Assembly: GCF_054482595.1 (NCBI RefSeq)
Contig: NZ_CM137008.1
Reading direction: 5' to 3' (one strand)
Length of the DNA stretch: 64,000 bases
Of this stretch, positions 40,305 to 44,607 are shown in pieces (position 1 is the stretch's first letter; each line of letters begins with the position of its first letter). The notes under the pieces were generated by a model that was given only the letters and a program-made list of their open reading frames with translations, was not told where the DNA came from and did not search any database. Both the position numbers and the translations under genes were made by a program.

Positions 40305-41554
<1,250 letters not shown>

Positions 41555-41731
41555 TAAAGTAAGTAACTGGTTAATTTACATTCTGGTCGCGTGCGCAAAT
41601 ACGCTTTTCCTCACACAGTTGTCAAGTGTTACGTTTAGATAATTGCTATCCGGAAAAGCATCTGCTATTTATAGCGGCCTCATTTTTCCCCCGAACATGG
41701 GGATCGATAGTGCGTGTTAAGGAGAAGCAAC

Positions 41732-42187
41732 ATGCAAGAAGGGCAAAACCGTAAAACATCGTCCCTGAGTATTCTCGCCATCGCTGGGGTGGAACCATAT
41801 CAGGAGAAGCCGGGCGAAGAGTATATGAATGAAGCCCAGCTGGCGCACTTCCGTCGTATTCTGGAAGCATGGCGTAATCAACTCAGGGATGAAGTCGATC
41901 GCACCGTTACACATATGCAGGATGAAGCAGCCAACTTCCCGGACCCGGTAGACCGTGCAGCCCAGGAAGAAGAGTTCAGCCTCGAACTGCGTAACCGCGA
42001 TCGCGAGCGTAAGCTGATCAAAAAGATCGAGAAGACGCTGAAAAAAGTGGAAGACGAAGATTTCGGCTACTGCGAATCCTGCGGTGTTGAAATTGGTATT
42101 CGCCGTCTGGAAGCGCGCCCGACAGCCGATCTGTGCATCGACTGCAAAACGCTGGCTGAAATTCGCGAAAAACAGATGGCTGGCTAA
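41732..42187 (+). CDS. dksA: RNA polymerase-binding transcription factor DksA
   Basis: ATG at 41732 preceded by AAGGAGAA; [36 protein letters not shown]...; C4 zinc finger CESCGVEI...CIDC. Confidence 0.95.
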
Positions 42188-42216
42188 TTACAGCCGTTCC
42201 ATCACGTTTACCACAG

Positions 42217-42244
42217 GCGGGAAATGCTCCCGCCTTATTTTTTG
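42217..42244 (+). terminator. intrinsic terminator downstream of dksA, overlapping the 5' end of the gluQ ORF
   Basis: GGCGGGA-AATGC-TCCCGCC followed by TTATTTTTT. Confidence 0.7.
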
Positions 42245-43150
42245 TTCAAAGAGATGACAGACACACACTATATTGGCCGCTTCGCCCCCTCTCCTTCCGG
42301 CGAGCTTCATTTTGGTTCTCTGATTGCTGCGCTTGGCAGCTATTTGCAGGCTCACGCCCGACAAGGTCGCTGGCTGGTACGCATAGAAGATATCGACCCG
42401 CCTCGTGAAGTTCCCGGTGCCGCAGAAACTATCCTGCGCCAGCTGGAACATTACGGCCTGCACTGGGACGGCGATGTTCTCTGGCAATCGCAACGTCACG
42501 ATGCCTATCGTGAAGCACTCGCCTGGTTACATGAGCAAGGACTAAGTTATTACTGCACCTGCACGCGTGCACGTATTCAAAGCATTGGCGGTATTTACGA
42601 CGGTCATTGCCGGGAATTGCATCATGGACCAGGCAACGCCGCAGTGCGTATCCGCCAGCAGCATCCGGTCACCCAGTTTACAGACCTGCTGCGAGGCATT
42701 ATTCACGCCGACGAAAAACTGGCACGGGAAGATTTTATTATTCATCGCCGTGATGGTTTGTTTGCCTATAACCTGGCGGTGGTGGTGGATGATCACTTCC
42801 AGGGCGTGAGCGAAATTGTCCGCGGGGCAGATTTGATCGAACCGACAGTGCGGCAAATCTCGCTGTACCAGCTTTTTGGCTGGAAAGTGCCAGATTACAT
42901 TCATCTGCCGCTGGCGCTTAATCCACAAGGCGCTAAACTTTCCAAGCAGAATCATGCGCCTGCGTTGCCGAAAGGCGATCCACGCCCGGTACTAATCGCG
43001 GCACTTCAATTTCTGGGTCAGCAGGTAGAAGCACACTGGCAGGATTTCAGCGTCGAACAAATCCTTCAGTCAGCCGTCAAAAACTGGCGGCTTACCGCAG
43101 TGCCTGAGTCGGCAATTGTAAATTCAACATTCTCAAATGCGTCATGCTGA
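42224..43150 (+). CDS. gluQ: glutamyl-Q tRNA(Asp) synthetase GluQ-RS (YadB)
   Basis: 308-aa ORF with class I aaRS HIGH-like motif (ELHFGS); first ATG lies in the loop of the dksA terminator hairpin, alternative in-frame ATG at 42254. Confidence 0.88.
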
Positions 43151-43209
43151 GCTATGATTAGCCGCTATTTTTTTGTCCTGAATGATGTTTGACACTACCG
43201 AGGTGTACT

Positions 43210-44607
43210 ATTTTTACCCGAGTCGCTAATTTTTGCCGCAAGGTGCTAAGCCGCGAGGAAAGCGAGGCTGAACAGGCAGTCGCCCGTCCACAGGTGACGG
43301 TGATCCCGCGTGAGCAGCATGCTATTTCCCGCAAAGATATCAGTGAAAATGCCCTGAAGGTAATGTACAGGCTCAATAAAGCGGGATACGAAGCCTGGCT
43401 GGTTGGCGGCGGCGTGCGCGACCTGTTACTTGGCAAAAAGCCGAAAGACTTTGACGTAACCACTAACGCCACGCCTGAGCAGGTGCGCAAACTGTTCCGT
43501 AACTGCCGCCTGGTGGGTCGCCGTTTCCGTCTGGCTCATGTGATGTTTGGCCCGGAGATTATCGAAGTTGCGACCTTCCGTGGACACCACGAAGGTAACG
43601 TCAGCGACCGCACGACCTCCCAACGCGGGCAAAACGGCATGTTGCTGCGCGACAACATTTTCGGCTCCATCGAAGAAGACGCCCAGCGCCGCGATTTCAC
43701 TATCAACAGCCTGTATTACAGCGTAGCGGATTTTACCGTCCGTGATTACGTTGGCGGTATGAAGGATCTGAAGGACGGTGTTATCCGTCTGATTGGTAAC
43801 CCGGAAACGCGCTACCGTGAAGATCCGGTACGTATGCTGCGCGCGGTACGTTTTGCCGCCAAATTGGGTATGCGCATCAGCCCGGAAACCGCAGAACCGA
43901 TCCCTCGCCTCGCTACCCTGCTGAACGATATCCCACCGGCACGCCTGTTTGAAGAATCGCTTAAACTGCTACAAGCGGGCTACGGTTACGAAACCTATAA
44001 GCTGCTGTGTGAATATCATCTGTTCCAGCCACTGTTCCCGACCATTACCCGCTACTTCACGGAAAATGGCGACAGCCCGATGGAGCGGATCATTGAGCAG
44101 GTACTGAAGAACACCGATACGCGTATTCATAACGATATGCGCGTTAACCCGGCGTTTTTGTTTGCCGCCATGTTCTGGTACCCACTGCTGGAGACGGCAC
44201 AGAAGATCGCCCAGGAAAGCGGCCTGACCTATCACGACGCTTTCGCGCTGGCGATGAACGACGTGCTGGACGAAGCCTGCCGTTCACTGGCAATCCCGAA
44301 ACGCCTGACGACATTAACCCGCGATATCTGGCAGTTGCAGTTGCGTATGTCCCGACGTCAGGGTAAACGCGCATGGAAACTGCTGGAGCATCCTAAGTTC
44401 CGTGCGGCTTATGACCTGTTGGCCTTGCGAGCTGAAGTTGAGCGTAACGCTGAACTGCAGCGTCTGGTGAAATGGTGGGGTGAGTTCCAGGTTTCCGCGC
44501 CACCAGACCAAAAAGGGATGCTCAACGAGCTGGATGAAGAACCATCACCGCGTCGTCGTACTCGTCGTCCACGCAAACGCGCACCACGTCGTGAGGGTAC
44601 CGCATGA
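43210..44607 (+). CDS. pcnB: poly(A) polymerase I PcnB
   Basis: ORF contains [24 protein letters not shown]...; no in-frame ATG near the conserved N-terminus; start placed at ATT 43210 following published AUU initiation for E. coli pcnB; track ORF starts at TTG 43189. Confidence 0.85.

Follow-up and report, generated by a model that had tools for sequence, protein, structure and literature searches.

Introduction

The closest described counterpart of the element analysed here is the terminator that separates dksA from gluQ-rs in Shigella flexneri (Caballero et al. 2012, BMC Microbiol 12:226, PMC3542578). Both elements occupy the same locus with near-identical sequence, and in both the first AUG of the downstream gene sits in the hairpin loop, with a second AUG following in the same frame. 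In S. flexneri, expression of the downstream gene depends on the dksA promoters and translation begins at the second AUG without an obvious Shine-Dalgarno (SD) sequence. The two AUGs are 30 nt apart by our coordinates, whereas the S. flexneri report counts 27 nt between the two codons. The DNA studied here differs in coming from an E. coli strain and in carrying His instead of Gln at residue 5 of GluQ-RS, with the structure of the element unchanged.

Intrinsic terminators within operons are also known from rpsU-dnaG-rpoD, where the terminator precedes a dnaG gene with a poor SD sequence, and from the recA-recX read-through system, both named in PMC3542578. As at dksA-gluQ, the downstream gene of such systems is promoter-less, has a weak ribosome-binding site and is made at a small fraction of the upstream gene, a likeness that we draw from the statement in that paper and from general knowledge. 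The dksA-gluQ hairpin departs from them in that its loop also holds a decoy in-frame ATG, which misled annotation. The preQ1 riboswitches of queuosine genes likewise place a terminator hairpin just upstream of a queuosine-related start codon, but dksA-gluQ has no aptamer, no Rfam match and no antiterminator, and a coding gene plus 27 nonconserved nt lie upstream of its hairpin.

Our analysis identifies the feature, with high confidence, as this published leaky Rho-independent terminator inside the E. coli/Shigella dksA-gluQ operon, with gluQ translated from the second in-frame ATG (ATG2). The operon structure, the terminator, the decoy ATG (ATG1) and the true start are already known, having been published in 2012 and later confirmed by Term-seq and N-terminomics. 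The biological addition is small, and the practical value lies in the annotation of the gluQ start.

The locus

The window, i.e., the whole 64-kb stretch of DNA analysed, belongs to E. coli. Its sfsA-to-pcnB region was matched in 5424 of 5426 complete E. coli genomes, with a top identity of 99.9% (strain XH990). The dksA reading frame ends with TAA at 42185-42187 and has a strong SD sequence (anti-SD duplex of -9.2 kcal/mol, 6-nt spacing). Residue 5 of GluQ-RS (42266-42268) is His (CAC) in the window and Gln (TDTQ) in K-12, S. flexneri and the PDB chains; each variant occurs among E. coli and other Escherichia. The features are listed in Table 1.

Table 1. Features of the dksA-gluQ region in window coordinates.
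Feature	Position	Strand	Basis
sfsA, dksA, gluQ (gluQRS/yadB), pcnB	41.5-43.4 kb	+	
dksA CDS, 151 aa, upstream gene of the dksA-gluQ operon	41732..42187	+	RefSeq annotation of a 99.9% identical E. coli genome, mapped
Intrinsic terminator hairpin, AGGCGGGA-AAUGC-UCCCGCCU (DNA: AGGCGGGA-AATGC-TCCCGCCT)	42215..42235	+	Fold, scan, conservation, published S. flexneri stem mutants
ATG1, first in-frame ATG, K-12 annotated start (308 aa)	42224..42226	+	NC_000913.3 annotation
U-tract UAUUUUUUGUU, running into the A/U-rich, SD-less gluQ leader (CAAAGAG)	42236..42253	+	Sequence, Term-seq 3' end at 42239
gluQ (gluQRS/yadB) CDS from ATG2, 298 aa, tRNA glutamyl-Q(34) synthetase	42254..43150	+	PGAP annotation, 84-locus comparison, PDB 1NZJ/4A91, Edman, N-terminomics

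A strong intrinsic terminator follows dksA

The hairpin stem comprises 8 bp, six of them G-C, and is closed by a 5-nt loop that encloses ATG1 entirely; folded alone, it reaches about -14.5 kcal/mol. Its 5' edge lies 27 nt past the dksA stop, and the adjoining tail TATTTTTTGTT (42236-42246) counts 7 to 8 T in its first 10 nt. The preliminary description had recognized a strong intrinsic terminator at this site and placed the first gluQ ATG in its loop. Both observations were borne out, the former by the GC-rich stem, the U-tract, a strict scan and Term-seq. Its distance of 30 bp from the dksA stop needs correction to the 27 nt measured, and its GGCGGGA/TCCCGCC stem stands as a 7-bp core (42216-42234) of a stem that in fact has eight pairs.

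The hairpin was the top-ranked match of a generic terminator scan, which is nonspecific in this window (6 matches versus 5.2 expected). A stricter scan accepted only perfect stems of 7 bp or more that contained 5 or more G-C pairs and had at least 7 T within the next 10 nt. It returned 4 distinct sites over both strands of the 64 kb, compared with 0.1 in each shuffled sequence; therefore, the hairpin exceeds chance expectation.

Stem pair probabilities ranged from 0.81 to 1.0, i.e., about 1, when 47 to 195 nt of upstream sequence were included. Since pairing stayed this high in every upstream context, no alternative fold competes with the hairpin over that range, and an antiterminator alternative was ruled out. 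A riboswitch or another known RNA family was likewise ruled out by an Rfam scan of 41400-43400 (E <= 1), whose only match was a chance-level snoRNA hit inside dksA (E = 0.23). The U-tract can also pair with AAAGAGAUGA into a second, weak hairpin, which was set aside as a functional element: about 4.5-6 kcal/mol suffices to open it, and its sequences differ among genera.

The element thus combines the marks of an intrinsic terminator, i.e., a G+C-rich stem with a short loop, an adjoining U-tract, a Rho-insensitive 3' end in vivo and conservation with compensatory changes. The conserved upstream domain and the mutually exclusive antiterminator of riboswitches and attenuators were both absent at the hairpin.

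Termination and read-through in vivo

Term-seq of E. coli K-12 (Adams et al. 2021, eLife, PMC7815308, supplementary files 1 and 3) reports a 3' end at MG1655 position 160097 (- strand), which we mapped to window position 42239, in the U-tract and 4 nt past the stem, so that the RNA ends in ...CCCGCCUUAUU. These data stem from another strain than the window, with an identical 52-nt segment from the hairpin to ATG2. The end collected an average of 3,097,035 reads (LB, OD 0.4), far above the other values among the rows listed, with a Rho score of 1.16 ('No') and an intrinsic-terminator score of 7.47 (PMC7815308). Direct RNA-seq coverage dropped about 4-fold across the site, from 250 upstream to 62 downstream, and bicyclomycin barely altered the downstream value (62 without, 72 with the drug; PMC7815308). 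The coverage ratio translates into a read-through of about 25%, a crude figure given that transcripts from the pcnB promoters may contribute to the 800 nt counted downstream.

A 3' end at 42239 could also be generated by exonucleolytic trimming of a dksA-gluQ RNA back to a protective hairpin, in which case gluQ expression would be set by mRNA decay. Some 3' trimming is suggested by the distance of the end from the stem, only 4 nt where 7-9 nt is usual, and Term-seq alone cannot separate termination from processing. However, a canonical U-tract directly follows the stem, the intrinsic score is 7.47, and coverage falls across the site. Furthermore, mutation or deletion of the stem raises a downstream transcriptional lacZ fusion, as termination predicts and a 3' protective role alone would not. 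We thus regard trimming as the main origin of this end as highly improbable.

The genetic evidence for termination comes from S. flexneri, where RT-PCR showed co-transcription of dksA and gluQ-rs (PMC3542578). A promoter-less lacZ fusion (pVCDT) lacking the dksA promoters gave baseline activity, which indicates that gluQ-rs has no promoter of its own (PMC3542578). Deletion of the intergenic region with the terminator increased lacZ activity 10-fold and stem-disrupting mutations more than 2-fold (PMC3542578), values obtained with plasmids in another host than the window strain.

An independent gluQ promoter was also rejected in the window. The sole nearby match, TTCAAA-18-TATATT at 42245-42274, is misplaced, as transcription from it would start downstream of ATG2; the promoter scan returned 3 sites versus 2.9 expected by chance; and the gap between stem and ATG2 measures only 18 nt. 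The proposals that the hairpin ends dksA transcripts and that gluQ expression relies on read-through are thus both upheld, the first by about 3.1 million Rho-insensitive K-12 reads ending in the U-tract and the second by the S. flexneri fusions. Term-seq and lacZ fusions with hairpin mutations, which had been suggested as checks, were already in the literature with these outcomes.

Conservation of the hairpin and the case for regulated read-through

We compared 84 loci, i.e., the best 80 from different species in a contig search with GluQ-RS as query, all of them Enterobacteriaceae, plus four E. coli variants; the comparison thus describes that family. The GGCGGG/CCCGCC core is present in 77 of the 84 loci, in 50 distinct variants. 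Its six pairs are invariant and, because they never vary, carry no information on compensation. Compensatory changes appear at the edges of the stem (e.g., A-U to G-C, A-U to U-A): 46 variants have A-U and 4 have G-C as the inner flanking pair, and for the outer flanking pairs A-U, U-A, C-G and G-U were all seen. The loop is unconstrained in sequence (AATGC, CTT, CAT, TCA, TTT, TCT, ATCTC and others), and no conservation was found across the 84 loci in the 27-nt spacer from the dksA stop to the hairpin. Within the species, 4887 of 5424 E. coli genomes carry the 52-nt segment unchanged.

This pattern bears on whether read-through is regulated. Read-through, and thereby the GluQ modification of tRNA(Asp), might be tuned with growth phase or stress by a factor such as a protein that binds the RNA, DksA/ppGpp through its action on RNA polymerase, or a small ligand, as a layer added to the leaky terminator rather than a replacement for it. 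In stationary-phase S. flexneri, RT-PCR across the intergenic region gave 20-fold more product, versus a 1.3-fold change for the dksA and gluQ amplicons, as estimated by semiquantitative end-point PCR, and Caballero et al. left a riboswitch-like or protein-binding role open (PMC3542578). This 20-fold rise is not accounted for by simple constitutive leakiness. The core also persists where loop and flanks have diverged, and even the U-tract with them (the Enterobacter tail reads UUGUUACCGUUGAU, and the hairpin there is only 12 nt from the ATG). Against regulation, the region lacks an Rfam match, the stem pairs with a probability of about 1 with no antiterminator fold, and the 27 nt upstream are unconserved. 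Moreover, a short stem made only of G-C pairs is expected to stay invariant under selection for stability alone, since each single substitution disrupts a pair. Regulated read-through is therefore unlikely on balance.

More specifically, the stem might be a recognition site for a particular protein or a DksA/ppGpp-sensitive pause-termination signal, through which growth phase would tune read-through and perhaps gluQ translation. We consider this version quite unlikely; if true, the stringent response and the glutamyl-queuosine modification of tRNA(Asp) would be linked.

Two groups of loci depart from the E. coli arrangement. Enterobacter and relatives (L030, L039, L040, L042, L052-L057, L060, L072, L081 and L083) keep a GGCGGGAG/CTCCCGCC hairpin about 12-40 nt upstream of the gluQ ATG. 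In Enterobacter-group loci the U-tract is degenerate (TTGTTACCGTTGAT, besides the Enterobacter tail given above) and the stem ends only about 12 nt before that ATG; there, the hairpin may lean more towards blocking translation or terminating weakly than it does in E. coli. Unrelated stem-loops, e.g., CGGGGAAAATTTCCCG or GACGCCCCGC-TGAT-GCGGGGCGTC, and longer intergenic regions are found instead in Phytobacter/Kosakonia (L032, L033 and L041), Kosakonia cowanii (L074) and L079. The element has turned over in these loci, with some hairpin still kept.

Translation of gluQ starts at the second ATG

ATG2 (42254-42256) lies 18 nt past the stem and 30 nt downstream of ATG1. Annotations conflict on which of the two is used: K-12 RefSeq NC_000913.3 (b0144) and UniProt P27305 begin gluQ at ATG1 (308 aa), PGAP-annotated genomes at ATG2 (298 aa). 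Edman degradation of His-tagged S. flexneri GluQ-RS, expressed from a T7-driven plasmid, read T-D-T-Q-Y-I-G-R-F-A-P in the predominant protein band, the only one covered, which identifies the second Met as initiator of a 298-aa protein (PMC3542578). In K-12, the TRAINSPOTTER N-terminomics study (NAR 2026, PMC13245402, Table S1 row 32) lists an alternative ATG start for b0144 gluQ with the peptide MTDTQYIGR and a 298-aa proteoform labelled 'N-terminal truncation (10aa)'. That table has no row for the annotated ATG1 start, and its Ribo-seq support columns are empty for the gluQ start (PMC13245402); N-terminomics can miss rare forms. The chains of PDB entries 1NZJ and 4A91 are also 298 aa long, begin with MTDTQ and align from residue 11 of the 308-aa query, i.e., from ATG2. 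GluRS homologues align only from residues 17-19 of that frame.

Conservation separates the two codons. An ATG seven codons before the GRFAPSPSG motif, corresponding to ATG2 or an indel-shifted equivalent, is found in all 84 loci. ATG1 occurs in nine (E. coli, E. albertii and one further Escherichia) and is absent from the other 75, which comprise all non-Escherichia loci, E. whittamii, Escherichia sp. MOD1-EC7003 and one E. coli isolate. In E. whittamii it has become ATA (loop AATAC), in the E. coli isolate, from blood, the loop reads ATTAC, and in MOD1-EC7003 the ATG is out of frame. At least six loci from several genera carry a stop codon directly 5' of ATG2.

Predicted accessibility points the same way. 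Opening the ribosome site (-15 to +12) would cost about 17.8 kcal/mol at ATG1 versus about 5.8 kcal/mol at ATG2, in keeping with the proposal of the preliminary description that the hairpin occludes the upstream start. That description had also called the true start ambiguous, which holds for the annotation only; experimentally, the Edman, N-terminomics and 84-locus data favour ATG2, and the N-terminal proteomics it had suggested was already published for both S. flexneri and K-12. ATG2 does lie at 42254 behind a purine-rich AAAGAG as described, but we rejected this motif as a usable SD sequence, because it abuts the start codon with zero spacing and its anti-SD duplex, the best for ATG2, reaches only -1.7 kcal/mol.

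Both starts might still be used, yielding 308-aa and 298-aa forms of GluQ-RS, if ribosomes, temperature or helicases melted the hairpin and exposed ATG1. This codon is in frame with no intervening stop, sits in a single-stranded loop and follows an SD-like GGCGGGA (anti-SD duplex of -6.3 kcal/mol). It is also the annotated start and part of the segment that most E. coli genomes share. Yet the SD-like element is buried in the stem, 2 nt from ATG1, behind the opening cost given above, and the absence of ATG1 from 75 of the 84 loci, the N-terminal data and the onset of GluRS homology right after ATG2 all speak against its use. Dual initiation is therefore very unlikely. GluQ-RS starts at ATG2, a conclusion that rests on Edman, N-terminomics and conservation over the 84 loci. 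The energetics and conservation of ATG1 suggest that it is a lineage-specific accident of the loop sequence and not a start.

A model for dksA-gluQ expression

Within the leaky-terminator reading with initiation at ATG2, transcripts begin at the dksA promoters and most end in the U-tract past the hairpin, yielding a monocistronic dksA mRNA that the hairpin would protect at its 3' end. A minority read through and carry gluQ. On such read-through RNA the hairpin would re-form and lock the flanks of ATG1 together with the SD-like GGCGGGA, so that ATG1 would stay unused, and translation from ATG2 delivers the 298-aa enzyme. GluQ-RS would be made at a fraction of the DksA level because gluQ is promoter-less and travels on the minority read-through RNA. 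Published work or our analysis has established that transcripts terminate at the hairpin, that gluQ depends on the dksA promoters, that the hairpin affects downstream expression and that the protein begins at ATG2.

SD-independent initiation occurs on A/U-rich leaders. We infer that initiation at ATG2 is of this kind, with the unstructured, U/A-rich terminator tail (UAUUUUUUGUUCAAAGAG) as a putative landing site for the ribosome, probably via protein S1. The locus is a clear example of how a leaky terminator and an SD-less start hold a downstream gene at a low, fixed ratio. The choice of start also affects genome-wide maps: since gluQ is annotated from ATG1 in K-12, 15 nt upstream of the 3' end, the dksA terminator is scored as 'internal' to gluQ. 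Shifting the K-12 gluQ start to ATG2 (298 aa) would remove this artefact.

Neighbouring sites

Further sites in and around the operon were noted. Between sfsA and dksA, a weak hairpin formed by CTGCTATTTATAGCGG, with CCTCATTTTT after it (41662-41690), coincides with a K-12 Term-seq 'orphan' 3' end at 160652(-), which corresponds to about window position 41684 by offset from 160097. This end lies about 48 nt before the dksA ATG and near the dksA transcription start (about 41677) implied by the numbering of Caballero et al. The hairpin could be an sfsA terminator overlapping the dksA promoter region.

Another, moderate K-12 Term-seq 3' end falls inside dksA at 160387(-), about window position 41949 by offset. 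It drew about 29,000 reads, scored 1.04 as an intrinsic terminator and showed no dependence on Rho.

At the other side of the operon, the end of gluQ is overlapped by TTCTCA-17-TATGAT (43130-43158), which resembles a promoter, with seven consecutive T further on at about 43167-43173. The stretch 43130-43175 is plausibly pcnB promoter territory, within a promoter scan that is at chance level overall. The pcnB start in RefSeq is an ATT codon at 43210-43212 (att ttt acc cga ...), 60 nt past the gluQ stop, for which the list of open reading frames offers TTG at 43189; we take this ATT to be the known inefficient AUU start of pcnB.
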